Source: Candidatus Nomurabacteria bacterium (GTDB lineage Bacteria; Patescibacteriota; WWE3; UBA101185; UBA10185). From it: a DNA stretch of 64,000 bases. Below, piece by piece: positions 355 to 54,800 of this stretch. Each line of letters begins with the position of its first letter. Position 1 is the stretch's first letter. Position numbers and translations under genes: made by a program. The DNA is taken from contig JACKGU010000002.1 of NCBI GenBank assembly GCA_020631855.1, positions 234,615 through 298,614 of the forward strand, given 5' to 3'. The notes beneath the pieces were generated by a model that did no database searches, was not told the origin of the DNA, and saw only the letters and a program-made list of their open reading frames with translations.

Positions 355-465
355 ATCAACCACCACTATCTAAGCGGCTGTTTGCTGTAATTGTAAAGCC
401 TGGCATGTTGCATAAGCTACATCTACTAGATCATGCAAGTAGTTTTAAGTAACGAAATTATAAAG
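355..465 (+). repeat. Copy R1 of the intergenic repeat family: 3' module, with an internal ~10 nt deletion
   Basis: atcaaccaccac...gctgtaatt...catgttgcat...acatctactag...caagtag...gtaacgaaattataaag shares the family's conserved core and its 3' end GTAACGAAATTATAAA. It sits immediately upstream of tRNA-Thr. Confidence 0.6.
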
Positions 466-466
466 T

Positions 467-472
467 ATAATT
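467..472 (+). promoter_or_regulatory. Candidate -10 box (TATAAT) for tRNA-Thr, 8 nt upstream of the mature 5' end
   Basis: A TATAAT hexamer lies at 467-472 and the tRNA starts at 481. The -35 region is weak (TTTAAG/TTAAGT, contributed by the repeat's 3' end). Confidence 0.35.
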
Positions 473-480
473 TTGATGGT

Positions 481-556
481 GCCACCCTAGCTCAAATGGT
501 AGAGCAGGCGTATCGTAAACGTCAGGTTATGGGTTCGATTCCCGTGGGTGGCTCCA
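481..556 (+). tRNA. tRNA-Thr (anticodon CGT), with encoded CCA
   Basis: Folds as a cloverleaf: acceptor GCCACCC/GGGTGGC, D-arm GCTC..GAGC, anticodon stem GGCGT/ACGTC with loop AUCGUAA (anticodon CGT), T-arm ATGGG-TTCGATT-CCCGT, discriminator T then CCA. Confidence 0.85.
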
Positions 557-579
557 AACAGACCTAACAGAAAGAAAAT

Positions 580-1296
580 ATGGCACAAAAAAGACATTAT
601 CATGAAGAAATACTAATTAAGAGACTTAAAAGAACTATATTGGCTGTTATAGGTATACCGGTACTGGTAATAGCCATAATGGCTTTTTTCGGCCCCACCG
701 TGGCTTCAATATTTGGCTTCGTATCAATAGACAGATGGACAAAAGCTCCTGGTGATACGATCGCACCCACCGTTCCGGGCTTCAGAAGCCCTCCCGGAAG
801 CGTTAAGGATACAAAAATTACTCTGAACGGGTTCGGAGAACCGGGATCAGTAATAAAATTGTTCATTAATGGCCCGGAGAAACAATCTACAGTAGTAGGA
901 AACGACGGAACCTTCACTTTTCAGGACGTTGAACTTATAAACGGAAAAAACACATTGTTTTTGAAGGCACAGGATCAGGCAGGAAACGAGAGCGAAGCGT
1001 CAGAAAGAGTTGAGATCACTGTAGATACAATCGAGCCTAAAATAGAAATAACCGCTCCTGAAAAAGATAAAACGGTAAAAAACCTAAATGAGAGAGTACT
1101 AATTCAGGGCAAAATTAGCGAAAAAGCCACTATTAGAATAAACGACAGGCTTGCAGTACAAAAGCCCGACCTCACTTTTGAATTCATTCTAGGGGTAAAG
1201 CAGGGTGAGGTAGAAGTTACGGTCGAGGCGGTTGACGAAGCAGGGAATAAAAAGGAAGAAAAGCTAAAGTTCACCTATCTCAAACAAAGCGAGTAG
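580..1296 (+). CDS. Membrane-anchored hypothetical protein with Ig-like beta-sandwich repeats
   Basis: 238-aa ORF. The N-terminal TM segment is ILAVIGIPVLVIAIMAFFG; repeated segments resembling bacterial Ig-like domains follow (ITLNGFGEPGSVIKLFING..., IEITAPEKDKTV...). No catalytic motif was recognised. Confidence 0.45.
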   Translation: MAQKRHYHEEILIKRLKRTILAVIGIPVLVIAIMAFFGPTVASIFGFVSIDRWTKAPGDTIAPTVPGFRSPPGSVKDTKITLNGFGEPGSVIKLFINGPEKQSTVVGNDGTFTFQDVELINGKNTLFLKAQDQAGNESEASERVEITVDTIEPKIEITAPEKDKTVKNLNERVLIQGKISEKATIRINDRLAVQKPDLTFEFILGVKQGEVEVTVEAVDEAGNKKEEKLKFTYLKQSE

Positions 1297-4940: not shown

Positions 4941-5033
4941 ATTCTACGAGTGTAAGCAATTTCTCGCAAACGTTACATTAAAAGGCATAGACAAACACCA
5001 TACTAAACAAGTGTTATTTAAAACTTATCACTG

Positions 5034-5039
5034 TATAAT
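5034..5039 (+). promoter_or_regulatory. -10 box (TATAAT) 6 nt upstream of the GH18 gene's GTG start; apparently leaderless
   Basis: ctgTATAATgaattaGTG: only 6 nt separate the -10 hexamer from the start codon, and there is no SD sequence. Confidence 0.4.
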
Positions 5040-5045
5040 GAATTA

Positions 5046-6269
5046 GTGGATCTGCTCAAAAAACTTATCATTATTCTATACGCCACCTCATTAGGTTTGA
5101 TGACGGTAAATTTTATTTTTGTAAAAACGCCAAAAACGTATAACATAAAATCCCCGGTTCACGGTAGTTTTTCGGTCCTTGCTGCGGTCGATCAACAAAG
5201 AGAAAATTACATTGTCTACGGCTTTTTACCTTACTGGAAACTTGATAACGCAAAATTCATACAAACAGATAAGCTAACTGACATTGCCTACTTTGGGCTT
5301 AAGATAGAAGGAAACGGCGAAATAAGAAGGTTTGAAGAGCCCGGAGTACTAGAACCAGGCTACAACAACTGGAAAAATAACCCTGAACTTTCAAACCTCA
5401 TTTCTCGAAGCAAAAAAGCCGGAGTTAGATTTGCTTTAACCATAATATCTCACGAAGACGAGGTTTCAGATGAGTTTTTAAATTGCACATCCTGTTGGCA
5501 AACACTAATAAATGAGATAGGGATTGAACTTGAAGAAAAAAATATAACCGACGTCAATCTCGATTTTGAGTACTTTGGATACACAGATTTGGAAACAGCC
5601 TTAAAATACTCTGCCTTTGCTAAACAGCTAAACGACACGCTCGATGCTCGTTACAATAACAACTCGAAGGTTATCGTCTCAACATTTGCCGATTCTGTTG
5701 TTAAACCAAGAGTCACACACATTGACACGTTAGCAAAATATACAGACGGGCTTTTTGTTATGGCATACGACTTTCACAGGCCCGCCTCAGCTACTGCAGG
5801 ACCAATCGCGCCTTTGGGCGGAATGGGCGATAAAAGCTCTTACGACGTGATCACAATGCTCAAAGCGTACCTATCCACTATGTCGCCCGATAAAATAATT
5901 TTAGGCGTGCCGTACTACGGCTACAACTGGCTAATCGACGAACAAGCACCTTATGCAAACAGGGTTGAAGGTAACGACTACATAGGATACTCCGAATCTC
6001 AGCCTTACGAAACAATTGTATACGATATTAAGGAGCTAAATTCTTTAATTTTATGGGATAACATAGGGCAAACTCCATATTATTACTATCGATCTCCGGA
6101 CTCAGGAGCTTTGAGAGTCGTTCACTTTGAAAATAAAGACTCTTTAAAAATGAAGTATGGGCTTGTTAAGCAATACAACCTGGGCGGTGTCGGATTATGG
6201 GCCTTAGGTTACGATGGCCAGCTCCCTGAACTATGGGACTTACTGGGGAAAGAGTTTGGGAAAAAATGA
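5046..6269 (+). CDS. Glycoside hydrolase family 18 (chitinase-like), membrane-anchored
   Basis: DVNLDFEYFGY matches the GH18 catalytic DxxDxDxE motif; MAYDFH and YYGYNW match further GH18 motifs. N-terminal TM anchor; GTG start at 5046. Confidence 0.7.
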   Translation: MDLLKKLIIILYATSLGLMTVNFIFVKTPKTYNIKSPVHGSFSVLAAVDQQRENYIVYGFLPYWKLDNAKFIQTDKLTDIAYFGLKIEGNGEIRRFEEPGVLEPGYNNWKNNPELSNLISRSKKAGVRFALTIISHEDEVSDEFLNCTSCWQTLINEIGIELEEKNITDVNLDFEYFGYTDLETALKYSAFAKQLNDTLDARYNNNSKVIVSTFADSVVKPRVTHIDTLAKYTDGLFVMAYDFHRPASATAGPIAPLGGMGDKSSYDVITMLKAYLSTMSPDKIILGVPYYGYNWLIDEQAPYANRVEGNDYIGYSESQPYETIVYDIKELNSLILWDNIGQTPYYYYRSPDSGALRVVHFENKDSLKMKYGLVKQYNLGGVGLWALGYDGQLPELWDLLGKEFGKK

Positions 6270-6376
6270 AGACTCCGTGGACTGAAATCCCACGGCTCTT
6301 CTTTCTTTGCAGTTGAGAGCTCACGCTTTCATCTTCGAGCTAAAGCACAGGACCTTCCCGATGCAGAAATAAATAG
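6266..6376 (+). repeat. Copy R0: solo 5' module of the repeat family, placed between the GH18 stop codon and tRNA-Val
   Basis: ATGAAGactccgtggactgaaatcccacgg...cgagctaaagcacaggaccttcccgatgcagaaataaat is about 80% identical to the 5' halves of R5 and R4. Its first bases (aTGAag) include the GH18 TGA stop codon. Confidence 0.6.
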
Positions 6377-6468
6377 CGTGTAGGTTCGAAACCACTAACT
6401 AAGTTGAAATATCTTTATCTATGAGAGGCTTCTTCGCAAAATATGTGACAGGTTAGGTGTTTTTATTA

Positions 6469-6545: not shown

Positions 6546-6599
6546 TTACAAATATCAGACCCGGAGTTGTTGCCGAGGCGAGTTAATTATACAACATGA

Positions 6600-7148: not shown

Positions 7149-7173
7149 AAAAACAACCCCAGAATCCCTCTAC

Positions 7174-7295
7174 AATCAACTGCCACCAGCTTGTGCAGGT
7201 GGTTTGCTGTAATTTCTTTGCACTGCAAAGCCCAACATGTTGGGTAATCTGCATCTACTAGCCTGCGCAAGTAGATTTAGGTAACGAAATTATAA
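7174..7295 (+). repeat. Copy R2: 3' module, followed directly by a 13-nt stub of the 5' module
   Basis: atcaactgccaccagcttgtgcaggtggtttgctgtaatttctttgcactgcaaagcccaacatgttgggtaatctgcatctactagcctgcgcaagtagatttaggtaacgaaattataaa. The next bases (7296-7308), ATGAAGGttcagg, match the 5'-module start ATGAAGGctccgtgg. It lies between the convergent 3' ends of lepB and rpmA. Confidence 0.65.
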
Positions 7296-7344
7296 AATGA
7301 AGGTTCAGGAAAATTGCAAACTTTTTACGATGAGCTTGAATCTA

Positions 7345-12943: not shown

Positions 12944-13101
12944 ATAAACATTTTTTTCTCTAGGTAAAGCTTGTGACTCTAAAGTGCTAGCGGATACGCA
13001 ATAATTATATTTACTGCAGTAAGGCAGCCAACCTAGTTCACGTATGAAAACTTATGTACGTAGAAGTAAAGAAAGGTCTTCTGCTCTGGGTCCGCAACAC
13101 T

Positions 13102-13749
13102 TCATTTTACTTTTTCATTAAACTTTTTGGGCAACCAAATAGTATCTTCAATCTGCTGAACGTGGTTTGCATACCTTGCTAAAACAAACAATAAATCAGA
13201 CAATCTATTAAAATAAATTAGCATGTCTCTGGAAACATCATCTATAACAAAGTCTTTCTGAGAAACAAAAGATACAAAACTCCGCTCAAGTCTCCTGCAC
13301 ACTGCTCTGGAAATATGTAAATTTTTGGCTTGTATACTGCCGCCAGGTAAAATAAAGTTTTTTAATTCCGGTAAATCTGAGGACAGCTCGTCAATCAAAC
13401 GTTCCGACTTCAAAACCATCGCGCGAACATCTGGCCCTAATGAAGAGGTTCTTGTCCATTTGACTGATTTGGCTAAAGCTGTACCTGCTCTTTTTTTTGA
13501 TTCTGAAACATCACCATCGCCTGAAGATTCATAAGAAGCTATCACAGCACCGAGGCTAAAAAGATCTTCCTGCAGTCCTAGGATTGTTCTTGATATTTTT
13601 GATTTATTATCAACAACAGCTAAAGCCAAAGCAGCATTAAGCTCGTCCATAGTGCCTAATACTTCAAAAACATATTCTTTTTTCGAAAGAATTCCGCCGT
13701 TTATGATTGAGGATTTGCCGGAGTCGCCTTTTTTTGTGTAAATTTTCAT
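13102..13749 (-). CDS. PduO-type ATP:cob(I)alamin adenosyltransferase
   Basis: The N-terminus MKIYTKKGDSGKSSI matches the PduO/MMAB signature (IYTRTGDKGETSL). Its size (215 aa) fits, and the neighbouring gene encodes a B12-dependent RNR. Confidence 0.7.
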   Translation of the reverse strand: MKIYTKKGDSGKSSIINGGILSKKEYVFEVLGTMDELNAALALAVVDNKSKISRTILGLQEDLFSLGAVIASYESSGDGDVSESKKRAGTALAKSVKWTRTSSLGPDVRAMVLKSERLIDELSSDLPELKNFILPGGSIQAKNLHISRAVCRRLERSFVSFVSQKDFVIDDVSRDMLIYFNRLSDLLFVLARYANHVQQIEDTIWLPKKFNEKVK

Positions 13750-13798
13750 AATTTATTCTGCTATAAAAATAGGGGTGCTACAAGGCCTATTTATTGAA

Positions 13799-13828
13799 GG
13801 AGGCAGGGAGATTTTCTCCCTGCCTCCT
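13799..13828. terminator. Perfect 13-bp palindromic hairpin between nrdJ and pduO; likely the nrdJ terminator
   Basis: GGAGGCAGGGAGA-tttt-TCTCCCTGCCTCC lies 40 nt downstream of the nrdJ stop codon. The flanks are A/T-rich on both sides. Confidence 0.45.
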
Positions 13829-13868
13829 TCTTAATAACAAACAATCAAGCCCGGACATAAGCGCCTAA

Positions 13869-16373
13869 TTAACAGACACTATAGCCACAATCATGACACT
13901 TTAAACAACCCTCTTCTCTTATAAGCGAAGAGTTGCCGCAATCCGGACACATATCTAAGTGGGCATTAACACTTATATTATTTGAGTTTTCTTCAATTAT
14001 ATTCGAACCATTCGCCTTTACTTTTATCTTTAAATCGTCTGCCAATACTTTAGCTATAGCATCAGGAATGGAACTTACCCTGCTCTTACCAAAACCTACA
14101 GAACGCGCGCCGCCGATGCCTATTAGTTGCGATACTATTTCTTTTGCTGTCGTCAAAGGATTATAACTTGTTCTCAACCAGCCCGATAAAGACCTTCCAA
14201 GAGCCTCAGAGAGAGCCGATACGTCGCTACCCGCTTTACCTACTCCTACAAAAACCTCGAAAGGATCGCCGTTCGCATCTCTGTTTACAGTAATAAAAGC
14301 CTTTCCCTGGGGAGTTTGAACTTTGTAAGTATTTCCGTTCAACACATACCCTCTATCCATTATCGGCTCGGGATTAACGTTTTTAACTTCCTCGGGACCG
14401 GTATAAGAGCCGGCCTCTTTAGAGTCTTTTACTGCCTTAGTTTCCAAAACTACTTCTGTCCTACTTCCGGTGACATAAACCGTTAATCCTTTACACTTCA
14501 TCTCCCAACCTAGCATATAAGCTTTAGAGACATCTTCCAGGGTCGCGCCCTCAGGGAAATTACATGTTTTAGATATTGAGTTATCTATGAAAGCCTGTAT
14601 TGCGGCCTGAGTCATTATATGCTCTTCGGCAGTAATATCAGAGGAAACAACAAAAACATCACGAATCTCTCTAGGAAGATCTTCTATGTCAGTACAGGAA
14701 CCGGTGTTTGCAACTGAAGAAATAATATTCTGACGCGTTTCCGGAGAAAGATCTAACATATCAAGGGCCTTCTCAAACATTGGACTAACATAGGTGAGGG
14801 TTAGCTTTTCAGAATCTCCTGCAGCCTGATAAACGTTTCTTAAATAAGCCAGAGCAAAAACAGGCTCACAGCCGTAACCCTCAATTCCTGCAACAGTTGA
14901 GATTGTACCGGTTGGGGCAACAGTTGTTTGAGCAGCATTTCTAATACCGTGAGTCCTGATACCCTCCACCACGTATGCCCAATCCAGCGCCGGCCTACCA
15001 AAATCTTTTGAGTAGGGGGTCAGCGGTTTGGGGGGCTGCCATGTTAGATTTTCAGGGTCGTAAATACTACCTTTAATCTTTAAGAAAGGGCCTCTTTCCT
15101 TTGCCAACGCTATTGAAATCTTCATAGAGTGATATCTAATAAATTCAGTTATCTGCGCTGCCAGCTCTTGCCCCTCGAGACTTCCGTACCTTACTCCCAT
15201 TGCATACATCACGTCCGCCAAACCCATAAAACCTAGCCCAATTCTCCTGGCATTTAAGGCCGCCTCTCTGAGCTGAGGAATAGACGGCACATAAGTATTT
15301 TCAGATACTACGTTATCTAAAAATCTTGTTGCTAACTCTACACTTTCCTCTAAGAACTCCCAATTAAGCGTGCCATCTTCGTTAAGATGCGCCTCAAGGT
15401 TGAGCGACCCCAAACAACAGTTCTCATAAGGTCCAAGCCACTGCTCGCCGCAAGGATTTGTTGCCTCCAGATCATAAAGATGGGGCACGGGGTTGGTTCT
15501 ATTTGCCTCGTCGATAAATAACACTCCGGGCTCACCATTTTTGTGTGCGTGTTTAACTATTAAATCAAATATTTCACGAGCCATTGGTGTCTCGGTAACC
15601 TCTTTAGTATTAGGATCTATTAATTCGTAAGCTGTATCGTTTCTAACCGCCTCCATGAATCTGTCGGTAATAGCCACGGAGATGTTGAAATTCGCCATTT
15701 TACCTTCCTGGGCTTTACACATAATAAATTCCCTTATATCCGGATGATCAACCTTTAATACACCCATGTTAGCACCCCGACGAGCTCCTCCCTGAGCTAC
15801 CTCACCGAACGCACCATCATACACGGACATGAACCCAACCGGGCCGCTAGCCTTGCCGTTACTAGATTTTACAATACTGCCCTTTGGTCTAAGCTTTGAA
15901 AATGAAAAGCCGTTTCCACCTCCAGACTGCTGAATTAGTGCCGCAGTTCTTAGCGTAGAAAAAATGCTATCTTCACCAATCCCAAGATCGTCAGAGACCG
16001 GCAAAACGAAACAAGCGGCCAACTGGCCAAGCGGGGTTCCGGCACCGGTAAAAGTAGGGGAATTTGGAAAGAAACGCTTTGTCGCCAAAAGGTTATAGTA
16101 TTCAACCGTAGATTTCTGTACATCTCGGTAAGGAGCATCGGGCTTTGCAACTGTGGAAGCAACGCGTTCAAATAGTTGCTGTATATTTTCGGCATAAGTT
16201 CCGTCGGGATTTTTTCTTAAATACCTTCTCTCCAGTATATTTTGGGAGTTTGGGCTGAGTTCTATGTCTTCCTTTTTTTGCAGACCGTAATCTTTAATAA
16301 AAGTTGTATTAACTTTCAATGAACTGAGTATACTAGGTTTAAAAGCGTTAGAGGCAACATTAATCCACTTCAT
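13869..16373 (-). CDS. nrdJ: Class II (adenosylcobalamin-dependent) ribonucleotide reductase
   Basis: 834 aa. The active-site region is [21 protein letters not shown], and the C-terminal Cys cluster (CPDCGNSS...[12 protein letters not shown]) is typical of NrdJ. Confidence 0.85.
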
Positions 16374-16663
16374 ATTAAAGAGGATTTCAGAAACCGGTAG
16401 GCTTAAACTGCCTGAAAGACTACAGGTTTATGGAATCCGGTCAGGAATTTTATACTTTTTTGTTTCAAGTCTTATCTTTTCATAATCAAAAAAACAATAC
16501 CACTAATGCCGATTAATACTTGAACTATTTTGAACTACTGTGGAAATTAAAAATCAATAAACAGGTATTTTTTTTAACCGATCCTATATTGCAACATTCT
16601 AAATTTTAACATTTATGATTTTCTATTACTGCTAAAGGGTTTGAAAGCTCTTAATAACTCTAA

Positions 16664-16781
16664 GCAACCACCAGCTGACGCAGGTGATTTGCTGTAATTT
16701 CTTTGCTCTGCAAAGCCCAACATATTGGGTAAACTACATCTACAAGCCTACACGAGTCGTTTTAAGTAACGAAATTATAAA
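16664..16781 (+). repeat. Copy R3: 3' module, with remnants of the 5' module upstream (~16630-16663)
   Basis: agcaaccaccagctgacgcaggtgatttgctgtaatttctttgctctgcaaagcccaacatattgggtaaactacatctacaagcctacacgagtcgttttaagtaacgaaattataaa. It sits between the ftsZ 3' end and the nrdJ 5' end. Confidence 0.65.
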
Positions 16782-16844
16782 ATAAAGTGGGAATGCGCCA
16801 ATTTTTTATGGTGTTTTATCAAGGAGGGCTACTAGACCCGCTAA

Positions 16845-25022: not shown

Positions 25023-25025
25023 GTT

Positions 25026-25244
25026 TTAACTTAAAATTACTATTGCTAGAGAGTTAACGACTAAAAAGAGTGCAGAAATTATAGTTAATATGAGTATAAG
25101 TCTCTCTAAGCCTCTTTTTGACCTGTAGGCACTTACTGCACCACTAATGCTGCTGGAAAGACCGCCTGTTTTTGTTTGTATAACTACAACAAATATTATA
25201 AAAACAGATAAAAATAATTGAAGTGCTTTTAATACATTTAACAT
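25026..25244 (-). CDS. secG: Preprotein translocase subunit SecG-like
   Basis: 72 aa with two TM helices and the SecG-like loop VIQTKTGGLSSSISGAVSAYRSKRGLERL. Confidence 0.5.
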   Translation of the reverse strand: MLNVLKALQLFLSVFIIFVVVIQTKTGGLSSSISGAVSAYRSKRGLERLILILTIISALFLVVNSLAIVILS

Positions 25245-25258
25245 ATTTTATAATAATA

Positions 25259-25672
25259 CTATCTTTCCTTGCCTAACCATAAAAATGTTTTGACCGTTAT
25301 TGTAAAAACCAGAGCAGTACACAACAAAGACTCTATTCCATTTAGGTGCTTAGATGGTAACACAAAGCCAAAAATAATCAACTCAGGCAAAAAAGAAGCA
25401 ACGATTCTGAAGTTAGGCAAAAATACAATAAAAACTTGAAAAACAGCTACATTAAGAATTAAAGACAAAAATATAGCAGAGAACCCTTTTTTTGGAAGCG
25501 GTAAAATAGCAAATACATGAGGCGCAAGCATGTTAGCAAAAGTTAGCACAAAAACAACAAAAAAAGACGTGATTACTCTATTACCTGATATAAATATTCC
25601 CCCTATAGTACTGCTCGCGACGTAATAACCAATGGAGCAATAAATAAAGAATGTAATAAATTTTTTTATCAT
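25259..25672 (-). CDS. Hypothetical polytopic membrane protein
   Basis: 137 aa, 4 predicted TM helices, no recognisable motif. Confidence 0.3.
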   Translation of the reverse strand: MIKKFITFFIYCSIGYYVASSTIGGIFISGNRVITSFFVVFVLTFANMLAPHVFAILPLPKKGFSAIFLSLILNVAVFQVFIVFLPNFRIVASFLPELIIFGFVLPSKHLNGIESLLCTALVFTITVKTFLWLGKER

Positions 25673-27027: not shown

Positions 27028-27050
27028 CTATTTATTCTAACATTGAAGTA

Positions 27051-31791: not shown

Positions 31792-31799
31792 ACCCAAAG

Positions 31800-31828
31800 A
31801 TTATACGAAACAATTGAGTGTATTTCAA
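31800..31828 (-). promoter_or_regulatory. uvrA promoter TTGAAA-N17-TATAAT, 8 nt from the ATG, overlapped by an 18-bp palindrome
   Basis: The minus strand reads TTGAAAtacactcaattgtttcgTATAATctttgggtATG. The palindrome GAGTGtatttcaaCACTC (31816-31833) overlaps the -35. Confidence 0.45.
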
Positions 31829-31851
31829 CACTCTGTATTTTGAGTTTTACA

Positions 31852-32071
31852 ATGAAGAGACTACGGACATAAGTCCGTAGCCTCGCCCCTACTGCTCCAC
31901 GCATAAACTTTCACCGCGAACTAAAGCAAGGGGCCTTCCCGCTGCAGAAATCAACCACCGCCAGCTTACGCTGGCGGTTTAATGTAATTTCTTTGCACTG
32001 CAAAACCCAAAATGTTGGGCAAACTAAATCTACTAGCCCACGTAAATAGGTTTGAGTAACGAAATTATAAA
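31852..32071 (+). repeat. Copy R4: full-length bipartite element (5' module plus 3' module)
   Basis: ATGAAGagactacggacataagtccgtag...gaactaaagcaaggggccttcccgctgcagaaatcaaccaccgccagcttacgctggcggttt|aatgtaatttctttgcactgcaaaacccaaaatgttgggcaaactaaatctactagcccacgtaaataggtttgagtaacgaaattataaa. It lies between the uvrA 5' end and the 3' end of a LysM gene. Confidence 0.7.
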
Positions 32072-32170
32072 GTTGAGAACGGGTACGAGACAAAAAATAT
32101 ACCCCTTGGGCAGGGGTATAGGGGTAACGTAATAACAACCTAGTGTTATTATTCTATTGCAATATAATAA

Positions 32171-32626
32171 TTACTCACAAACTACTTTTAGCACTTGACC
32201 TTCAGCGACCTCTGAATAAATGGTCATGCCATTAGCTTCAGCCAGTTTGTTATATTTTTCACCTGCACCACACACTCTCTTAGCAACGTGCCACAAACCT
32301 TCACCTTTCTGTACTACAGTCTCGCCTTCTCCAGCTTCGACCTTTGCCATTGTTGTGTCAGTTGTTGTTTCATCAACCATAGACTCTTCGCCGGCTGTAA
32401 CTTCGGTGGCTTCATTCTCTATCATAATTTCGGAATCGGTAAGATCGCTTAAATCTATTGGGGTGTTGCCTTTTGAGAAATAGGAAACACTAAAAACAAC
32501 CACAAGAGCGAATATTACTACTCCTGTTACTAAATGCCTCCATTCAGCGTTAGGGATATCTTTTTTAACCTGTGCAAAAGAAGTCATTATTTTTTTCTTT
32601 GTATCGTTAAAATTAACTTTTTTCAT
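32171..32626 (-). CDS. Membrane-anchored LysM-domain protein
   Basis: One TM segment (VVIFALVVVFSVSYF), an acidic linker, and a C-terminal LysM (GEGLWHVAKRVCGAGEKYNKLAEANGMTIYSEVAEGQVLKV). Confidence 0.55.
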   Translation of the reverse strand: MKKVNFNDTKKKIMTSFAQVKKDIPNAEWRHLVTGVVIFALVVVFSVSYFSKGNTPIDLSDLTDSEIMIENEATEVTAGEESMVDETTTDTTMAKVEAGEGETVVQKGEGLWHVAKRVCGAGEKYNKLAEANGMTIYSEVAEGQVLKVVCE

Positions 32627-32768
32627 TAGTACTCACCTCCTTAATTTACTATAATAATATATGATTTTCTTTAATATTCAAGATTTAAACTCGACCATAA
32701 AAGTTTATACACCAAAATCGATTGTAATAATCAAAGATCGGTTATTAAAAACGCTTTTAAGATAAAAG

Positions 32769-35288: not shown

Positions 35289-35378
35289 TAAGTACCTGTC
35301 CTGTAACTTGTACCGGTATTACTGCTTAAATTAATCATCTTAAGATGGTACTCGCGTATTATAAATTGCAACTACAGG

Positions 35379-37454
35379 TTATGTCAAATTAGCCTGTTTT
35401 TTTATCTTTCGTATTTGGTCACGAATGACAGCCGCCTTTTCAAAATTTAAGCTATCGGCCTCGTACTGCATCTCTTTTGTGAGTTTTAAAAGCTCTTTTT
35501 TTAAGAATTTTGGTGGCAGTTGTAAATAATCAATATCCGATAGCGTTTTTTTTCTGTCTGACTCTGTAACATCTATGACCTCTTCGTATAGCTTTGCCCT
35601 TATTGGCTTTGAGATTGAAACAGGCGTGATGTTATGCTCAATATTATATTTTTCTTGGATGGCCCTTCTTCTGTTTACTTCTCCGATAGCACGCTCCATG
35701 CTTTTCGTGACATTATCTGCATACATCACTACCTCACCGTTTATATGCCTTGCGGCACGGCCCATGGTCTGAATCAGTGCGCTTTCTGATCTCAAAAAAC
35801 CTTCTTTATCAGCATCTAATATTGCCACCAAAGAAACTTCCGGCAAGTCCAAACCTTCTCGTAATAAGTTGATACCAACTAAAACATCGTAATTACCCTT
35901 TCGTAGGTCGTCTAAAATGTTGGATCTTTCCAAAGTCTCAATATCCGAATGTAAGTATGTTACTTTTATGCCTTTATCAACGAGGTAGGTTGCCAACTCT
36001 TCAGCCATCCTCTTAGTTAAAGTTGTAACTAAAACTCTTTCTCCTAAAGAAGTTTTTTCTAGTATCCTACTAAATAGATCTTCGATCTGCCCTTCTGTGT
36101 TCAAAACAGTGATTCTGGGATCAATCAATCCGGTGGGCCTAATAATTTGCTCTACTATTCTATCCTTAGATGCCTCAATCTCCCAAGCGGACGGCGTTGC
36201 ACTTGTATATACTGTATACCCCATACGCTCGCGAAACTCGTCAAAGTTTAGAGGTCGGTTATCGAATGCTGAAGGCAATCTAAAACCGTAATCAATTAAG
36301 TTTTTCTTCCTTGCATAATCCCCATTGTACATACCACGTACCTGAGGAATTGTGATGTGAGACTCATCAACAACAAGTAAATAGTCTTTGGGGAAAAAGT
36401 CCAACAAAGTATAGGGGGCATCCCCCGGGCCCCGACCATCAAAATATCTTGAGTAATTCTCTATTCCTTTACAATAGCCAATCTCCCGTATCATCTCTAA
36501 ATCATACATGGTCTTTTGTTCTAACCTATAAGCCTCGATGGCCTTTCCTTCCGCTTTCAAGAAAGCTACGCGTTTCTTTAGGTCGAGCTCAATTTCCTCA
36601 TAGGCTTTTTCTCGTCGCTCCTCTGCGGTAACGTAATGTTTAGCAGGGTAAATCATCAAAAAGTCTCCTTCTTTAGCTCTATGACTATTAAAATCAGATT
36701 CATCTTGCGTAATACTCTTGGTATGGCTTCCCCTTCTCTCAGAAACCAGCTGAGACCTGTCTATCGGATCCCCCGTGAGAGGATTGAATCTGGTTATACT
36801 CTCAACACGATCGTCAAATAATTCAACCCTAACTCCTACTTCCTCGTAAGCCGGGTAGATATCGACAGTGCTACCTCTAATTCTGTAAGTGCCTCTTTTA
36901 AACTCGAACTCATTTCTTTCATAAAAGATTTGATTAAGTCTAAGTAATAAATCCTCTAATCTGATCTTCATTCCTTGCTTGAGTTCAATTGCGACCTTGG
37001 AATATTCAGCTGGAGAACCAAGGTTGTATATGCAAGAGACGGAGGCTACAACGATAACGTCTTTTCTGGTCATTAAAGACATGGTTGCTGAGAGCCTCAT
37101 TCTATCTATGTTTTCATTTATGTCAGCGTCTTTTTCTATATACGTGTCCGTACGAGGAATGTAGCTTTCAGGCTGATAGTAGTCATAGTAGCTTACAAAA
37201 TATTCAACTGCATTTTCAGGAAAAAAATCTTTAAATTCTTGGTAAAGCTGCCCAGCAAGAGTTTTATTATGCGAAAGTATAAGTGTGGGACGTTGAATCT
37301 CTTGAATAATGTTTGCAACAGTGAAAGTCTTGCCGCTTCCGGTCACTCCCAATAAAACCTGATCTCGGCAACCTTCCTCAAGCCCGCCAAGCAAAAAATC
37401 TATTGCTTTTGGCTGATCCCCTGAGGGCTTGTAGGATGAATTCAGCTTAAACAT
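35379..37454 (-). CDS. uvrB: Excinuclease ABC subunit B
   Basis: GVTGSGKTFTVANII is the Walker A motif. Helicase motifs and a C-terminal UVR domain (EMQYEADSLNFEKAAVIRDQIRKIK) are present. Confidence 0.9.
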   Translation of the reverse strand: MFKLNSSYKPSGDQPKAIDFLLGGLEEGCRDQVLLGVTGSGKTFTVANIIQEIQRPTLILSHNKTLAGQLYQEFKDFFPENAVEYFVSYYDYYQPESYIPRTDTYIEKDADINENIDRMRLSATMSLMTRKDVIVVASVSCIYNLGSPAEYSKVAIELKQGMKIRLEDLLLRLNQIFYERNEFEFKRGTYRIRGSTVDIYPAYEEVGVRVELFDDRVESITRFNPLTGDPIDRSQLVSERRGSHTKSITQDESDFNSHRAKEGDFLMIYPAKHYVTAEERREKAYEEIELDLKKRVAFLKAEGKAIEAYRLEQKTMYDLEMIREIGYCKGIENYSRYFDGRGPGDAPYTLLDFFPKDYLLVVDESHITIPQVRGMYNGDYARKKNLIDYGFRLPSAFDNRPLNFDEFRERMGYTVYTSATPSAWEIEASKDRIVEQIIRPTGLIDPRITVLNTEGQIEDLFSRILEKTSLGERVLVTTLTKRMAEELATYLVDKGIKVTYLHSDIETLERSNILDDLRKGNYDVLVGINLLREGLDLPEVSLVAILDADKEGFLRSESALIQTMGRAARHINGEVVMYADNVTKSMERAIGEVNRRRAIQEKYNIEHNITPVSISKPIRAKLYEEVIDVTESDRKKTLSDIDYLQLPPKFLKKELLKLTKEMQYEADSLNFEKAAVIRDQIRKIKKQANLT

Positions 37455-37464
37455 AGAACAAATT

Positions 37465-37478
37465 ATAACATATGTTCG
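37465..37478. promoter_or_regulatory. Candidate LexA (Cheo-type) box overlapping the uvrB -10 element
   Basis: The plus strand reads ATAACATATGTTCG; the minus strand reads CGAACATATGTTAT, a 12/14 match to the Cheo consensus CGAACATATGTTCG with the perfect 10-bp palindrome AACATATGTT. It overlaps the uvrB -10 TATAAT (37462-37467; ATG 7 nt downstream) and lies 21 nt upstream of the lexA -35. Confidence 0.5.
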
Positions 37479-37499
37479 GGTAATTTTTGGGCAAGTTTC

Positions 37500-37529
37500 T
37501 TGACATCTTCGGTTTGTTTTCGGTAATAT
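37500..37529 (+). promoter_or_regulatory. lexA promoter TTGACA-N18-TAATAT, with the ATG 7 nt after the -10 (leaderless)
   Basis: TTGACAtcttcggtttgttttcggTAATATttaaatATG: -35 at 37500-37505, -10 at 37524-37529, start codon at 37536. Confidence 0.45.
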
Positions 37530-37535
37530 TTAAAT

Positions 37536-38165
37536 ATGAGCCCAGTAACACTTTATAAAAGACAAAAAGAAATCTTAGATTATATTTCTCAGTATATTCA
37601 AATTAACGGAACCTCCCCCACCCTATCAGAAATAGCTGATGCCATGGGTCTTTCTTCTCTAGCCACAGTGCACGAACATCTTCAAACCCTAGAAAAAAAG
37701 GGTGTAATTAAAAGATTTGACGGCTCCGTGAGAGGCATAGAGGTACTTGACCTGTCGGTAAACTCCACTCCACAAGCGCTAGAGCTGCCGTTAATAGGCT
37801 ATATAGCGGCCGGGGAACCGATTGAAGCCATAGAGAACCCCCTTGACACTGTGCTAGTATCTTCGGATCTGGTTTCAAAAGTAAAAAGATGTTATGTACT
37901 CCAAGTAAAAGGAGACTCGATGATCGGCATTGGCATTTTTGACGGAGATTATGTTGTAGTTCAACAACAAAATGTAGCTCAAAACGGAGATAACGTTGTA
38001 GCTCTAATAGAAGGTAATTTTGCGACATTAAAAACCTTTTATAGAGAAAAGAACGGAAAAATAAGACTACAGCCTGCTAACGATTCCATGGAACCAATTA
38101 TAGTAGACGAAGAAGATGTTCAAATTCAAGGCAAAGTTACGGGAGTTATAAGAAAATTCTCGTGA
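37536..38165 (+). CDS. lexA: SOS repressor LexA
   Basis: N-terminal wHTH (LTKRQKEILDYI...SPTLSEIADAMGLSS) and a C-terminal S24 peptidase domain with the Ala-Gly cleavage site (IAAGEP), GDSMIGIGIFDGDYVVV (catalytic Ser) and the Lys motif LKTFYREKNGKIRLQPAN. Confidence 0.85.
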   Translation: MSPVTLYKRQKEILDYISQYIQINGTSPTLSEIADAMGLSSLATVHEHLQTLEKKGVIKRFDGSVRGIEVLDLSVNSTPQALELPLIGYIAAGEPIEAIENPLDTVLVSSDLVSKVKRCYVLQVKGDSMIGIGIFDGDYVVVQQQNVAQNGDNVVALIEGNFATLKTFYREKNGKIRLQPANDSMEPIIVDEEDVQIQGKVTGVIRKFS

Positions 38166-43411: not shown

Positions 43412-43481
43412 ACACTAATGGTAATACATACCGATTTATTAGTCTAGGAAAAAATAGGTACAAAAAGAAAATATTCTCTAA

Positions 43482-43708
43482 ATGAAGGCTCCGTGGACTA
43501 AAGTCCCCAGTCTCTTCTTTCTCCGCGGTTGAAAGCCCACGCCTTCATCCCCGAGCTAAAGCACGAGGTCTTCCCGCTGTGGAAATCAACCTCCGCCAGC
43601 TTACGCAGGTGTTTTGCTGTAATTTCTTTGCTCTGCAAAGACCAACATACTGGGCAAACTACATTTATTAGCTTACGCGAGTAGAGTTTTAAGTAACGAA
43701 ATTATAAA
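43482..43708 (+). repeat. Copy R5: full-length bipartite element
   Basis: ATGAAGgctccgtggactaaagtcc...cgagctaaagcacgaggtcttcccgctgtggaaatcaacctccgccagcttacgcaggtgtttt|gctgtaatttctttgctctgcaaagaccaacatactgggcaaactacatttattagcttacgcgagtagagttttaagtaacgaaattataaa. Its 3' end abuts the pgm stop codon with a 3-nt gap, and the 5' end lies 70 nt upstream of the ppsA ATG. Confidence 0.7.
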
Positions 43709-43711
43709 TGA

Positions 43712-50004: not shown

Positions 50005-50023
50005 GTAACTCTATAATATCAAA

Positions 50024-50350: not shown

Positions 50351-50351
50351 A

Positions 50352-51254: not shown

Positions 51255-51260
51255 TTCAAC

Positions 51261-51671: not shown

Positions 51672-51849
51672 AAATATTAGACTTTAATGAGCAGACAAAA
51701 TGCTTGTGAAATCTATAGATATTCACCAGCATTCACCATGTACATCCAATATGCACCAATTTTATCCCAAGGTCAATACAAAGATTACCCGAAGATTGAA
51801 AGGAGATGACTTGAAAGTGAAATTTTAAAACTCTGTTCTCGGAACTTTT

Positions 51850-52052
51850 TCCTGCTGATGCTTTTAGAATGTTGGCGCATCTACACTTTTACTCCTTTCA
51901 GCCTTCGCCGATAAGCTAAAAGCTGAAGAACGTCAACCGCACCGGCTTATGCATGTGTTTTTCTGTAATTTCTTTGCGCTGCGAAGCACAACATGTTGGG
52001 TAAACTACATCTACTAGCTTACGCAAGCAGTTTCAAGTAACGGAACTATAAG
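51850..52052 (+). repeat. Copy R6: diverged full-length element (the 5' module is recognisable from ...cgataagctaaaagctgaag...)
   Basis: ...ccgataagctaaaagctgaagaacgtcaaccgcaccggcttatgcatgtgtttttctgtaatttctttgcgctgcgaagcacaacatgttgggtaaactacatctactagcttacgcaagcagtttcaagtaacggaactataag. It lies upstream of mraZ, at the left edge of the GC-rich island. The 5' boundary is uncertain. Confidence 0.55.
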
Positions 52053-52112
52053 TAATGAAAAAGGAGGGGATTCAGGAAAACCTGTAATGCAAGGCCTTCC
52101 CTCCGCCCCCCC

Positions 52113-52508
52113 TTAGAAAAAATAGTTCAGCAGGTAGTAAATACCACCTGCTGCCAAGACCCCCATTACCACAACGACAAACAGGCAACAACCGTTGCCA
52201 TCGTCGCCGGGTGACGGCGGTATTATATCTTCCATGCTCCAGCCAGATCGCCGGAGCGCAACTATGACAAGCAATGCAGCTATGCCTAGCGCAAACGCTA
52301 GGACAAAGGCATTGCCTGCCCAGACGAGGAGACCCTCGTCCTTTTCCTCGACCACAGCGGGCGCTGTGGTCGGAGTAATTTGCTCAGCCACCGTAGTGGT
52401 GGGCTGGGCAACTTTGGTTTTCGGCGGCTGCGCCACCAAAAACACACCCACGGCACAAATGGCCATGGGTATAAGTAGGGTCGCTACCGACCCTATAAGT
52501 TTTTTCAT
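52113..52508 (-). CDS. Small secreted/membrane protein of unknown function, encoded in GC-rich DNA
   Basis: Strong SD (GGAGGG-aaaa-ATG), signal peptide MKKLIGSVATLLIPMAICAVGVFLV, a Pro/Thr-rich linker and two C-terminal TM helices. Local GC is about 55-60% against about 38% around it, and the codon usage looks atypical for the window. Confidence 0.4.
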   Translation of the reverse strand: MKKLIGSVATLLIPMAICAVGVFLVAQPPKTKVAQPTTTVAEQITPTTAPAVVEEKDEGLLVWAGNAFVLAFALGIAALLVIVALRRSGWSMEDIIPPSPGDDGNGCCLFVVVVMGVLAAGGIYYLLNYFF

Positions 52509-52559
52509 TTTTCCCTCCAGGGAAATTCGCTCCGAGGAGACATTTCGGCCGAAGCCTTA

Positions 52560-53060
52560 ATGTCGGAGCCAGGCTTTAATGTAGCCTGCCTATTTTGCCG
52601 AGGAAAAGATTGGCAGGGATAGGTCCCTTTTGGGAATTTGGTGGCTGGCGCCACGCTCCTTACACCCTATAGGGGGTCGGGACATCCAAAGATGCGGGTT
52701 ACACCGCACCGGTCCCTGGGTGTAAGGTCTTTCCCTGGTCGTTAACGTAGACCATCGGCAGATGCAAGCATCTTTGCTGCACGTCAGGGTAACCCATAGC
52801 TGTTTTCTCACAGCTATCCCTCTCGATGGGGTTTTCTGCTCTTGGGCTTTCCTACGCTTCATTGCGCCGGAAACTTCCCTCACCTACCTTTACGCCGCAG
52901 GGGCGTTCAGATAACTGCCCTGGGGGCGGTGCTCCTTAACGCACCAGAGATCTATCGCGTCTCCTTGGCGCCACTGTTGCTAAAATCTTTGATTAGTGGG
53001 ATCAAAGAAGTTGAGTTATCGAACAAATAATGTTTTGGTCGGCAATTCAACTTTTTTGAT
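52560..53060. other. GC-rich, hairpin-dense ~0.5 kb non-coding region: candidate structured RNA or leader of the 52113-52508 gene
   Basis: No convincing ORF; about 55-60% GC. Local stem-loops include GACAUU-aa-GGC-uucg-GCC-g-AAAUGUC and an RBS-sequestering UCCCUGGAGGGA just upstream of the small gene. Two copies of a GGUGC(G)UUAAGGAGC(A)CC-like motif occur (52640-52670, 52925-52955). A terminator-like hairpin plus U-tract lies on the plus strand at ~53010-53065. Identity unresolved. Confidence 0.3.
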
Positions 53061-53176
53061 GCTGAGAATTAAGAAAAACAGGCAGCAAAAAAAGGTTTCT
53101 TATAATGTTATAGGTTAATTATACGCCTAATGAAGCGTTTTGTAAATATTATAGGTCCTTTACGGGGGGGGGGAGG

Positions 53177-54523
53177 TTACCCGAGCTCGTCGATTCTTAA
53201 GCGTCTTTGTGAAGCTGTATCGCGATCTCTGATAGTCACAGTTTCATCCTCTAAGGTCTGAAAATCGACTGTAATGCAATAGGGAGTCCCTATTTCGTCT
53301 TGGCTATAGTACCTTTTTCCAATATTTCCTCGATCATCCCAAGCCACATTATAGCCTTTGGTAACTAGAGTGTTGTATATTAGCCGAGCTTTATCCACAA
53401 GCTCGGGTTTATTCTTTAAAAGCGGGAAAACAGCATACCTATAGGGTGCTATATCTGGGTGCAGTTTCAGAACTACTCGTTCTTCTTCCTCAACATAAGC
53501 ATCAAACAACAACACCAACATAAGTCTATTAAGCCCTATGGAGTACTCAACGACATGGGGAACATATTTCTCCCCTGTTACAGGGTCGGTGTAATCTAGA
53601 TTAGTTCCCGAAAATTCCGCATGGCGACTTAAGTCCCAGTCGCTTCTGTAGTGAAGGCCTTGAAATTCTTTCCAACCAAAAGGAAATCTATACTCAACGT
53701 CTGTAGCTATCTTATTGTAATGAGCCCGCTCCTTAAAGTCTTGGTCGCGCAGCCTGAGCTTATCTTCAGGAATTCCCAAACTTACTAACCAGTCTATAGC
53801 CCAAGATTTCAATTTCGCCATTTGATTTTCGGCATCTGAAGGATGCACATACAGTTCCATTTCCATTTGTTCAAATTCCCGCGTTCTAAAAAAGAAAGGG
53901 CCGACCTTTATCTCATTTCTAAACGCCTTGCCTATTTGAGCTATTCCAAAAGGTATTTTCATTCTCATGGAATCTCGAACTAAAGCGTAGTTATAAAAAA
54001 TGGGCTGACATGTTTCTCCTCTTAAATAAGCGGTTGCTTTAGCGTCTTCTAGTGTACCTATTGAGACCTCAACTAAACTATTGAATTTTCTTGCTTTTGA
54101 AAGCTTATTTCCATCGGGGCTTAAAATGTTATTTTCAGCAATTAAAATATCCAGCTCCTCAAGACTCATGCCGTCAGCATTAAACTCCTCTCCGTTTTTT
54201 TTCTCAAAGTATTCCCCAATAATGTGGTCGGCTCGATATCTTTTATTGTTTTTTATATCTTCAACCATTGCATCGGCAAAGGATTCAACGTGCCCGCTAG
54301 CCTCCCATACCCTCGGGTGAGATATAATTGCACTATCTAGCCCCACTATGTTTGGTTGTTTATGCACAAACTCTTTCCACCATAAATTTCTGATGTTTCT
54401 TAGCATTTCAGCTCCTAGAGGACCAAAGTCGTAAGCGGCTTCCCACCCACCATAGATTTCTGAGGATTGAAAAACAAAACCTCTTCGTTTGCATAAACTT
54501 GTTATTTTTTGAACCGCGTCCAT
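53177..54523 (-). CDS. glyQS: Glycine--tRNA ligase, homodimeric (archaeal/eukaryote-like) type
   Basis: The N-terminus RRGFVFQSSEIYGGWEAAYDFGPLG, the class II motifs (FRNE...) and the anticodon-binding C-domain identify a dimeric GlyRS. 448 aa. Confidence 0.85.
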   Translation of the reverse strand: MDAVQKITSLCKRRGFVFQSSEIYGGWEAAYDFGPLGAEMLRNIRNLWWKEFVHKQPNIVGLDSAIISHPRVWEASGHVESFADAMVEDIKNNKRYRADHIIGEYFEKKNGEEFNADGMSLEELDILIAENNILSPDGNKLSKARKFNSLVEVSIGTLEDAKATAYLRGETCQPIFYNYALVRDSMRMKIPFGIAQIGKAFRNEIKVGPFFFRTREFEQMEMELYVHPSDAENQMAKLKSWAIDWLVSLGIPEDKLRLRDQDFKERAHYNKIATDVEYRFPFGWKEFQGLHYRSDWDLSRHAEFSGTNLDYTDPVTGEKYVPHVVEYSIGLNRLMLVLLFDAYVEEEERVVLKLHPDIAPYRYAVFPLLKNKPELVDKARLIYNTLVTKGYNVAWDDRGNIGKRYYSQDEIGTPYCITVDFQTLEDETVTIRDRDTASQRRLRIDELG

Positions 54524-54678
54524 GGAACTATCCTACCATAACCATAAGCAGTATTAAATCCCATTTTAAATACAATCAGCAGCGGGTTTTACCCATCTCA
54601 AAAGGTGTTTGAGTACTTTGTTGATTTTTTGAGACCCGGACCCATAAGATAAGAGTAAAAAACGTGCTTTTACAAAAT

Positions 54679-54800
54679 AATCAACTGCCGCTAGCTCACT
54701 CAGGCGGGTTACTGTAGTCTCATTACGCTTCAAAGCCAACATTTCGGGCAAAGTACATCTTCTAGCCTATGCAAGTGGTTTTGAATAACTAAACTATAAA
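54679..54800 (+). repeat. Copy R7: diverged 3' module
   Basis: aatcaactgccgctagctcactcaggcgggttactgtagtctcattacgcttcaaagccaacatttcgggcaaagtacatcttctagcctatgcaagtggttttgaataactaaactataaa. It lies in the divergent region between glyQS and the small gene paired with the Y-family polymerase. Confidence 0.5.

Follow-up and report, generated by a model that had tools for sequence, protein, structure and literature searches.

The genomes of CPR bacteria are small and compact, and mobile DNA is considered scarce in them. In the 64,000-nucleotide stretch analysed here (hereafter the window), from a WWE3-like member of this group, a preliminary description recorded a hairpin-rich intergenic sequence of ~110 nt, in some copies extended by a second, 5' module. 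It offered two readings, a non-autonomous mobile element or a family of structured regulatory RNAs or terminator-insulators, and so raised the question of what these repeats are and how they came to lie between the genes.

All seven of the ~110-nt repeats reported on the plus strand were recovered there as 3' modules of ~117 nt by an nhmmer model built from these seven window copies themselves (E 1e-26 to 1e-39), while copies from the metagenome were matched independently by blastn (E 1e-12 to 1e-36). The conserved sequence GTAACGAAATTATAAA was exact in 5 copies. Three clear 5' modules of ~100 nt were located with nhmmer, together with a fourth, diverged one that the earlier reader had missed; lying on the opposite strand, it contradicts the statement that all copies are oriented alike. 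A further 5' module lies ~0.6 kb past the left window edge (L036:8702-8817). Both families were also found by a de novo repeat search of the window, and a scan of the window for additional repeat families showed no other. As summarized in Table 1, the density is 11 modules in 64 kb; they make up about 24% of the spacer DNA of the window and occupy 9 of the 11 spacers that are 190 nt or longer. When the other contigs are included, distinct copies number 13 for the 3' module and 6 for the 5' module.

Table 1. Repeat modules in the window; the strand is that on which the ends are described in the text.
Feature	Position	nhmmer bounds	Strand	Remarks
R1, 3' module	355..459	355-465	-	TTTAT on minus strand at 460-464; nhmmer E 1e-26; 10-nt internal deletion
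R0, solo 5' module	6266..6368	6262-6378	-	TTTAT at 6369-6373
R2, 3' module	7175..7291	7175-7297	-	TTTAT at 7292-7296
Diverged solo 5' module	13011..13105	13005-13109	+	TATAT at 13006-13010; nhmmer E 3e-7
R3, 3' module	16662..16776	16662-16782	-	TTTAT at 16777-16781; right end diverged
5' module fused to R4	31852..31949	31847-31959	-	left end TTCTGCAGCGGG directly after 3'-module TTGAT; right end CTTCAT
R4, 3' module	31950..32066	31950-32072	-	TTTAT at 32067-32071; hairpins best preserved of all copies; right end GGTTGAT abuts 5' module
5' module fused to R5	43482..43584	43478-43594	-	nhmmer and end mapping
R5, 3' module	43585..43703	43585-43709	-	TTTAT at 43704-43708
R6, 3' module	51932..52047	51935-52052	-	CTTAT at 52048-52052; no attached 5' module
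R7, 3' module	54680..54795	54680-54801	-	TTTAT at 54796-54800; most diverged copy

The two modules had been described as parts of a single bipartite element, with the 5' module attached to R4, R5 and R6 and standing alone as R0. Its presence at R4, R5 and R0 was borne out, but the sequence upstream of R6 scored z = 0.4 against shuffles and gave no nhmmer match. Because most modules of each kind stand without the other (9 of 13 3' modules lack a neighbouring 5' module, and 4 of 6 5' modules occur unfused), the repeats form two families with members sometimes joined, and not a single bipartite unit. Fusion is head to tail: in R4 and R5 the 5' module sits directly after the TTGAT that closes the right end of the 3' module, while the left ends of solo 5' modules are preceded by TTTAT, TTCAT or TATAT. 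A comparable head-to-tail junction occurs on contig L017 (which L042 contains, plus flanks), where a right end finishing in AGTTGAT exactly abuts a left-end fragment that starts AATTTCGTTACT.

Mapping of the ends on the minus strand revealed the same plan in both families. The 3' module reads flank, yTTAT, AATTTCGTTACTTAAAA (17 nt), a hairpin, the body of the element, a second hairpin, and 8 nt ending in TTGAT. Its left hairpin (CTACTTGC-GTAA-GCTAGTAG) is separated from the left end by 17 nt and its right hairpin (CCACCTGC-GTAA-GCTGGTGG) from the right end by 8 nt; both hairpins carry the loop GCGTAAGC together with an A.A mismatch. The 5' module follows suit with TTNAT, 16 nt, a hairpin, the body, a second hairpin, and 9 nt ending in CTTCAT, its hairpin loops reading CTTTAG. 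The left-flank pentamer is yTTAT in 13 of 13 3' modules and TTNAT in 5 of 6 5' modules; that it lies outside the mobile unit is seen at one head-to-tail junction and in the fused copies only. When both modules' termini and flanks were compared, neither terminal inverted repeats nor target-site duplications were detected.

This arrangement closely resembles the ends of IS608, whose hairpins are set in by 19 nt on the left and 10 nt on the right, likewise with no terminal inverted repeats or target duplication (PMC3201880; PMC7290912); ISDra2, for its part, inserts 3' of TTGAT (PMC2806898). Two boxes within the 3' module, one covering the left-end junction and linker and the other the bases immediately 5' to the right-end hairpin, carry 6% mismatches versus 13.7% elsewhere (p = 4e-5); both are cis regions that IS608 uses. 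A putative guide-to-target pairing of TTAT with AAAA would mirror that of TTAC with AAAG in IS608, but the subfamily comprising R4, M15 and M17c has AAAC beside its left-end hairpin with the TTTAT flank unchanged.

Orientation was strongly biased. The clear copies share one strand in 10 of 10 cases across 74 kb, the sole reversed copy being the diverged 5' module of Table 1, and the L042 copies do so in 5 of 5 cases over 21 kb. Uniformity extends to convergent and divergent spacers, where transcription sets no direction. With a plus-strand GC skew of -0.09, the predicted active (minus) strand is the G-rich one, as it is in 5 of 6 contigs, the skew of the L042 region being near zero. Judged by GC skew and gene-strand bias, the active strand would be the lagging-strand template, use of which is expected for the IS200/IS605 family (PMC5027513).

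The preliminary description had proposed looking for empty sites in sister genomes, and these were found: at six syntenic loci of related genomes (FtsI 64-67% identical, GroEL 81-82%) gene order is the same, the copies are absent, and the spacers measure 0-9 nt versus 130-520 nt in the window or L042. Since the copies are missing and the spacers near zero in these relatives, the repeats are lineage-specific insertions and not ancestral DNA. Pairwise identity among copies is 66-89% (mean 77.5%), and diagnostic shared variants define subfamilies. Short-read assemblies break inside copies, short-read contigs doing so at R6. The copy numbers, the identities, the subfamilies and the assembly breaks point to a copy-and-paste history; the copies are old and decayed, and most now look inactive.

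The insertions have remodelled gene ends and spacers and rewritten at least two protein C-termini. Several contacts with genes noted previously were verified: R0 begins inside the TGA stop of the GH18 gene, a stop supplied by its right end CTTCAT when reverse-complemented; 3 nt separate R5 from the stop codon of PGM, where the PGM-PPDK spacer of the sister is 9 nt; and two copies flank the tRNAs of the window, R1 lying between a LysM gene and tRNA-Thr, 15 nt upstream of the latter, and R0 90 nt from tRNA-Val. Likewise, the cobalamin adenosyltransferase gene takes its TGA stop from one end of the diverged 5' module, and the C-terminus of its product is 7 residues longer than that of the sister. 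R2 separates LepB from L27, which overlap in sister locus L040, R3 lies between FtsZ and class II ribonucleotide reductase, and R7 occupies the spacer from which GlyRS and the dinB operon diverge. The lasting effect of the copies is wider spacers, and stop codons supplied by the ends of the copies.

The explanation that we favor, at about an even chance, is that both families are old, transposase-less mobile DNA with IS200/IS605-type ends, known as palindrome-associated transposable elements (PATEs); the repeats are accordingly a fresh instance of an already known kind of element, and not a new RNA. A Y1 HUH transposase supplied in trans would excise the minus strand of the window as single-stranded DNA and paste it into the lagging-strand template, 3' of a TTNAT pentamer that is mostly TTTAT. 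Since the right ends also finish in TTNAT (TTGAT or TTCAT), they would draw new insertions, and such targeting would produce both the fused "bipartite" copies and the one head-to-tail junction. Insertion of a 3' module starting with AAT after TTTAT or CTTAT would also create TATAAT, the sequence found at the junction in 11 of 13 3' modules; R6 and R7 start with AGT and have TATAGT. As single-stranded DNA, R4 folds with z = -6.2. The mobile-element reading offered previously (MITE/PATE type, IS200/IS605-like) thus gains from the empty sites, the subfamilies, the IS608-like ends and the TTNAT flank, although the active strand is opposite to the one then described and a HUH transposase was not found: neither a Y1 transposase nor TnpB emerged from ~115 kb of this organism's ~1-Mb genome, covered in part by Pfam scans and for the rest by precomputed Pfam marks for genes called on L021, L036 and L042.

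Further observations count against this scheme. The hairpins differ between the families, so that a single transposase would need loose recognition. Among the sampled populations, neither near-identical copies nor presence/absence differences were seen. A 3' module lies within 1 kb of every forward 5' module (5 of 5), and right-end targeting accounts only for the fused 5' modules among these, not for the other nearby pairs.

A less probable but serious alternative is that the repeats are generic interspersed intergenic repeats, BOX/SPRITE-like or MITE, spread by some other mechanism, their resemblance to IS200/IS605 being coincidental. They are modular, hairpin-rich, intergenic and clustered, with modules that adjoin or nest, as in BOX, RUP and SPRITE (PMC10969869); no transposase was seen; and the best-conserved part of the 3' module is a 14-nt imperfect inverted repeat, TGTAATTTCTTTGC with GTAACGAAATTATA (11/14). 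This inverted repeat is, however, not terminal, with ~45 nt of conserved sequence outside its left arm, and target duplications are absent. Moreover, a generic repeat leaves unexplained the 17- and 8-nt hairpin offsets, the TTNAT that both families show beside the left end and again at the right end, the exact right-to-left-end junction and the long-range orientation bias.

It is improbable that the copies were retained for a host function, whether as TATAAT promoters, as two-way terminators or insulators between formerly overlapping genes, or as protein-binding boxes. Such retention would fit the two boxes kept 2-3 times better than the remainder, the frequent junction TATAAT, the terminator-like hairpins called in R4, the persistence of copies in most long spacers of a streamlined genome, and the position of several upstream of RNR, uvrA, PPDK, mraZ and GlyRS. 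However, the hairpins have decayed in most copies (hairpin 1 at -1 to -10 kcal/mol except in R4, hairpin 4 at 0 to -6), pairing is kept no better than chance, a consistent -35 box is lacking, and beyond the elements the box motif shows no enrichment (8 matches versus 6.5 expected). Constraint on master copies alone could explain the boxes.

A structured non-coding RNA family, comprising small RNAs from either strand or TnpB reRNA-type guide scaffolds with the 3' flank as guide, is very unlikely: against a sharp, conserved end, a ~115-nt multi-hairpin body running from TATAAT to the right-end boundary, good folding of R4 on the plus and the minus strand (z roughly -5.6 to -5.9) and one compensatory change in a long-range helix of R7 stand a covariation score reached by 33 of 500 shuffles, paired positions at 89.1% versus 88.4% in shuffles, G-U and A-C pairs with no strand asymmetry outside one invariant pair, an R5 plus strand that folds no better than shuffled sequence, solo modules missing promoter or terminator in most copies, and no sight of TnpB in ~115 kb. 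Rfam returned only tRNAs, with no match to the elements even at E = 10, in keeping with the earlier remark that the element was not recognised as any described RNA; the structured-RNA or terminator-insulator reading offered alongside it finds no backing in these data. There is an equally slight prospect that the 3' modules are orphan guide-RNA genes, the junction TATAAT driving a multi-hairpin transcript of ~115 nt that finishes at the right-end boundary and reads into the flank, like TnpB reRNA/omega-RNA; if so, a TnpB-like nuclease or nuclease-dead repressor elsewhere could use dozens of copies for homing or gene control.

Other candidates were rejected. An intrinsic terminator family was set aside because the first hairpin reaches a strength of -9.9 kcal/mol or better only in R4, R2 and M18, with tails that have 3-5 T in 8 nt whichever strand is read. 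The sole inverted repeat is internal (left arm ~45 nt inside the unit) and there is no target duplication, unlike a terminal-inverted-repeat MITE. Units of 100-117 nt with 2-4 hairpins in direct orientation likewise differ from the single 20-40 nt palindrome of REP/BIME.

The two non-coding families have separated genes that overlap or abut in relatives. The repeats break short-read assemblies; they provide a dated, lineage-specific marker for the WWE3-like lineage and a caution for the annotation and binning of genomes of this kind. Should the IS200/IS605 reading be correct, they would indicate that a Y1 transposase, perhaps together with TnpB, is active in the lineage.

Comparison with known systems places the repeats as follows. 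Like REP/BIME (RAYT Y1), they are hairpin repeats, putatively of HUH type, with high copy number in spacers and close to stop codons, but REPs have a GTAG head and usually occur as inverted pairs of short single palindromes, in contrast to the longer, several-hairpin units here. Correia elements of Neisseria, ERIC and RPE MITEs similarly reshape the ends of genes, contribute stop codons or promoters and lengthen spacers; those bear terminal inverted repeats, and Correia a TA duplication, neither of which is present here. Pneumococcal BOX and SPRITE share a likeness of architecture, being short, modular, non-coding, hairpin-rich, clustering and inserting into one another, some of them terminator-like (PMC10969869), whereas BOX is an A-B-C unit with complementary ends and the present repeats are asymmetric at their ends and strongly biased in orientation. 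The closest match is to PATEs and their IS200/IS605 parents, of which IS608 and ISDra2 are autonomous elements that have been studied. [quoted passage not shown]

The seven ~110-nt 3' module copies (R1-R7) claimed in the preliminary description align over ~120 nt, and a profile built from them recovers exactly those seven in the window, on the + strand, with E values of 1e-26 to 1e-39; a more sensitive search added no further 3' copy there. That claim was thus borne out by both alignment and profile. Profile searches for the 5' module returned three clear copies and a diverged fourth, whose strand contradicts the proposed uniform orientation of every copy (see table). R6 had likewise been credited with an extra 5' module, yet its upstream flank is unrelated to that module (z = 0.4). 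Because most copies hold a single module, the sequences constitute two families, not the one bipartite element originally described. No other repeat family was found within the window, where modules sum to 1,275 nt (~24% of spacer DNA) and are present in 9 of the 11 spacers that reach 190 nt or more.

Positions of 5' modules and of other features observed (window coordinates unless a contig is named)
Feature	Position	Observation
5' module, clear copy	6262-6378	profile search
5' module, clear copy	31847-31959	profile search
5' module, clear copy	43478-43594	profile search
5' module, diverged fourth copy	13005-13109	strand opposite to other copies; E 3e-7
AAGCT within both 3' module hairpins, minus strand	e.g. 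31961-31980, 32029-32048	may be coincidence
Module-free spacer	25023-25258	236 nt; minus-strand TATAATTTCTGCAC resembles conserved box; may be ordinary promoter
R5 element to PPDK start	43412-43481	67 nt without counterpart in sister's 9-nt spacer; contains promoter-like TTGTAC-16-TAATAA
Stretch without called gene, module or Rfam match	52509-53176	668 nt; only an uncalled 97-aa ORF (52590-52883), no Pfam match
131-aa ORF adjoining that stretch	52113-52508	absent from sister loci
Palindrome between class II ribonucleotide reductase and cobalamin adenosyltransferase genes	13791-13837	49 nt; may be terminator or operator
Concentrations of DNA-repair genes	25669-38165 and 54842-57208	uvrC, uvrA, uvrB, lexA, dinB-like gene, recO
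Overlap of uvrA ORF with convergent transglutaminase-like ORF (27015-28979)	28822-28979	~157 nt; one end may be mis-set
Class II ribonucleotide reductase + cobalamin adenosyltransferase	13102-16373	same position in L041
Class Ia ribonucleotide reductase, large + small subunits	L040:12412-16368

In six syntenic loci of related genomes, gene order is preserved and a sensitive search detects zero copies, in agreement with the empty sites anticipated for a mobile element. The set comprised contigs L031-L034 (two genomes; FtsI 65-66% identical), L040 (64%), L041, and L045 with L046 (GroEL 81-82%). The PGM to PPDK spacer measures 9 nt in the related genomes and 300 nt in this lineage, and the Wzy-like to PEGA spacer 5 nt and 132 nt, respectively. 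GH18, LepB and L27 are overlapping ORFs in the relatives, while here R0 (a solo 5' module) and R2 widen the spacers; GroEL and the next gene, convergent and overlapping in the relatives, are separated by 521 nt on L042, a contig of assembly GCA_020631805.1. The modules are insertions, not ancestral DNA. The tRNA-Val, tRNA-Thr and tRNA-Asp genes adjoining modules are native. A cargo transposon, in which a 5' and a 3' module would bracket LepB with tRNA-Val or LysM with tRNA-Asp, was rejected since these genes occupy identical positions in sister loci that lack modules. Truncation of the PPDK N-terminus by insertion was also rejected, the window and sister N-termini being equal. As a separate observation on these loci, the ribonucleotide reductase gene differs by replacement among close relatives (L040 versus the window and L041).

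The window falls within contig JACKGV010000006.1 (629 kb) of assembly GCA_020631795.1. The nearest relatives of the window proteins belong to candidate division WWE3 and other Patescibacteria. A strict two-block pattern yielded chance matches only across 185,579 species genomes and nothing real in viral contigs, where the single match (L035) failed the module models; plasmid and phage collections held no similar element, and we found no literature on such repeats in CPR bacteria. In metagenomes, the pattern identified genuine copies on five contigs, drawn from two samples; one of these contigs, L017, represents the same locus as L042. The locus of the window is itself present in both samples, with comparable coverage (~4-5x in ERZ795048), and the copies therefore come from the same population or one very close to it. 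In total, the 3' module is represented by 13 distinct copies and the 5' module by 6. Five short-read contigs (L024, L025, L027, L029 and L030) start or stop inside R5 or R6, indicating that these modules fragment short-read assemblies of this lineage. Copies are 66-89% identical (mean 77.5%), with diagnostic variants common to subfamilies such as M15/M17c/R4 or R3/R5 (M designating 3' modules on metagenome contigs); such a pattern results when changing master copies are duplicated and the products then decay. The two repeat families are real, lineage-specific, non-coding and mobile.

The decisive step was to read both families on the window minus strand. The 3' module then begins, after a flank ending in yTTAT (TTTAT, n=10; CTTAT, n=3), with AATTTCGTTACTTAAAA followed by the hairpin CTACTTGC-GTAA-GCTAGTAG, and it closes with the hairpin CCACCTGC-GTAA-GCTGGTGG, TGGTTGAT and the flank. 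Its two hairpins are paralogues, with a common loop, a common A.A mismatch and stems that differ by paired changes. The 5' module starts after TTNAT with TTCTGCAGCGGGAAG(a) and a hairpin bearing a CTTTAG loop, and finishes with a GGAC-loop-GTCC hairpin and 9 nt ending CTTCAT before the flank. Solo 5' modules are preceded by TTTAT (n=2), TTCAT (n=1) or TATAT (n=1). Both families lack terminal inverted repeats and target duplications. A terminal-inverted-repeat MITE with an 88-nt core was rejected, as conservation continues for ~45 nt past the left arm and no duplication is present.

The pentamer may be the target and lie outside the element, as suggested by one head-to-tail junction plus one fused type. 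On L017, the right end of M17c (...GCTGGTGATAGTTGAT) is followed immediately by a left-end fragment starting exactly AATTTCGTTACTCAAAC, with the right end's TTGAT in the usual place of TTTAT. In R4 and R5, the 3' modules with a fused 5' module, GGTTGAT is directly followed by TTCTGCAGCGGG or TTCCACAGCGGG, such that both fused 5' modules have a 3' module's TTGAT as their flanking pentamer. Target-mimicking right ends would draw further insertions, which would explain the copies described as bipartite as head-to-tail pairs. A 3' module lies within 1 kb of every forward 5' module, a near-constant association for which right-end targeting accounts only partly.

Insertion also affects neighboring genes. 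Placing a left end that starts with AAT after TTTAT or CTTAT generates TATAAT at the junction in 11 of 13 3' modules (TATAGT at R6 and R7) and creates a TAA, which the gene adjoining M16 uses as its stop. The reverse complement of the 5' module right end, CTTCAT, similarly provides a TGA at which the GH18 and cobalamin adenosyltransferase genes now end, their C-termini differing from those of sister proteins. The end read as 3' in the preliminary description lies 4 nt or less from a stop codon in 5/13 copies (R5, M15, M16, M17b and M17c), which we attribute to ancestral spacers only a few bases long. Regarding gene neighborhoods, R4 stands before uvrA and R7 before the dinB operon, in which the dinB-like gene has a small upstream ORF (also in sister genomes L031 and L034) and is followed by recO.

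Two + strand boxes, TGTAATTTCTTTGC and GTAACGAAATTATAAA, are 2-3x better conserved than the remainder of the module, with mismatches across all copies of 3.1% and 4.7% compared to 13.2% overall. Four metagenome copies had been retrieved via these boxes; when the statistics were rerun without them, the difference persisted (6.0% versus 13.7%, p = 4e-5). On the inferred active strand, one box covers the left junction and its linker and the other the sequence immediately 5' of the right hairpin, and they are imperfect inverted repeats of one another. Such conservation could denote a host function. Outside the elements, the window shows no enrichment of the box motif, on which ground a LexA or other regulon box was rejected. 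Constraint on master copies, in which the boxes serve as cis sites for mobilisation, would produce the observed conservation without a host function.

Neither of two earlier proposals, a family of structured RNAs or of terminators, is supported. Helix pairing over five helices in 12 aligned copies was 89.1%, compared to 88.4% in column shuffles, and the covariation score was equalled in 33/500 shuffles. G-U (23) and A-C (19) pairs were balanced, one invariant G.T pair excluded, and therefore neither strand is favoured as RNA. In Rfam, the two tRNAs were the only matches of the window, and a full copy searched at E = 10 gave nothing above chance level. The first hairpin, taken to be a plus-strand terminator, measures -1 to -10 kcal/mol (R4, -15.8) and the fourth 0 to -6 kcal/mol; T-runs are alike on both strands, and R4 has a good fold on either strand, while R5 on the + strand folds no better than shuffled sequence. 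Plus-strand or two-way terminators were thus rejected, most hairpins being weak. A small-RNA gene running on the minus strand from TATAAT to the terminal hairpin fails because most modules are solo with one signal missing, and no consistent -35 box is present.

The ten clear modules over 74 kb (the window plus flanking contig L036) share one strand, as do the five on L042. These include R2, R7, M17a, M17b and M17c, at which transcription sets no direction because their spacers are convergent or divergent. Where the surrounding genes are arranged in tandem, the + sense runs antisense to them in 5/5 cases (R3-R6 and M16), with R1 the exception. Every 8-kb bin shows a + strand GC skew of -0.09, with 4/5 other contigs in agreement. 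The lagging-strand template is the insertion strand for the IS200/IS605 family (PMC5027513), and the inferred active strand (the window minus strand), G-rich and gene-rich, is probably this template; the support is not decisive because skew is near zero in the L042 region and one diverged copy is reversed.

Taken together, these findings make it highly probable that the families are selfish non-autonomous mobile DNA, while the odds that they are specifically PATEs of the IS200/IS605 type are about even. Of the earlier suggestions, the MITE/PATE element is the favoured one. Neither a Y1 transposase nor TnpB turned up in ~115 kb, as assessed by our own Pfam scans of flanking and unnamed ORFs and, where called genes on L021, L036 and L042 fell outside those scans, by precomputed Pfam marks. 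The value of these families lies in their CPR host, high copy density and clean head-to-tail logic. Members of the IS200/IS605 family carry neither inverted repeats nor duplications (PMC7290912), and their ends-only derivatives are PATEs; the end layout of both module families appears to be of this design. Cleavage of IS608 falls 19 nt 5' of the left hairpin, following a flanking TTAC outside the element, and 10 nt 3' of the right hairpin (PMC3201880). The 3' module likewise has a pentamer flanking its left end, with hairpin offsets of 17 and 8 nt compared to 19 and 10 nt. An IS608-like TTAT-AAAA pairing is suggestive, but the AAAC subfamily retains the TTTAT flank. For ISDra2, the insertion point lies 3' of TTGAT, and all its genomic copies have this pentamer before the left end (PMC2806898), comparable to the left-flank TTNAT or yTTAT of the modules.
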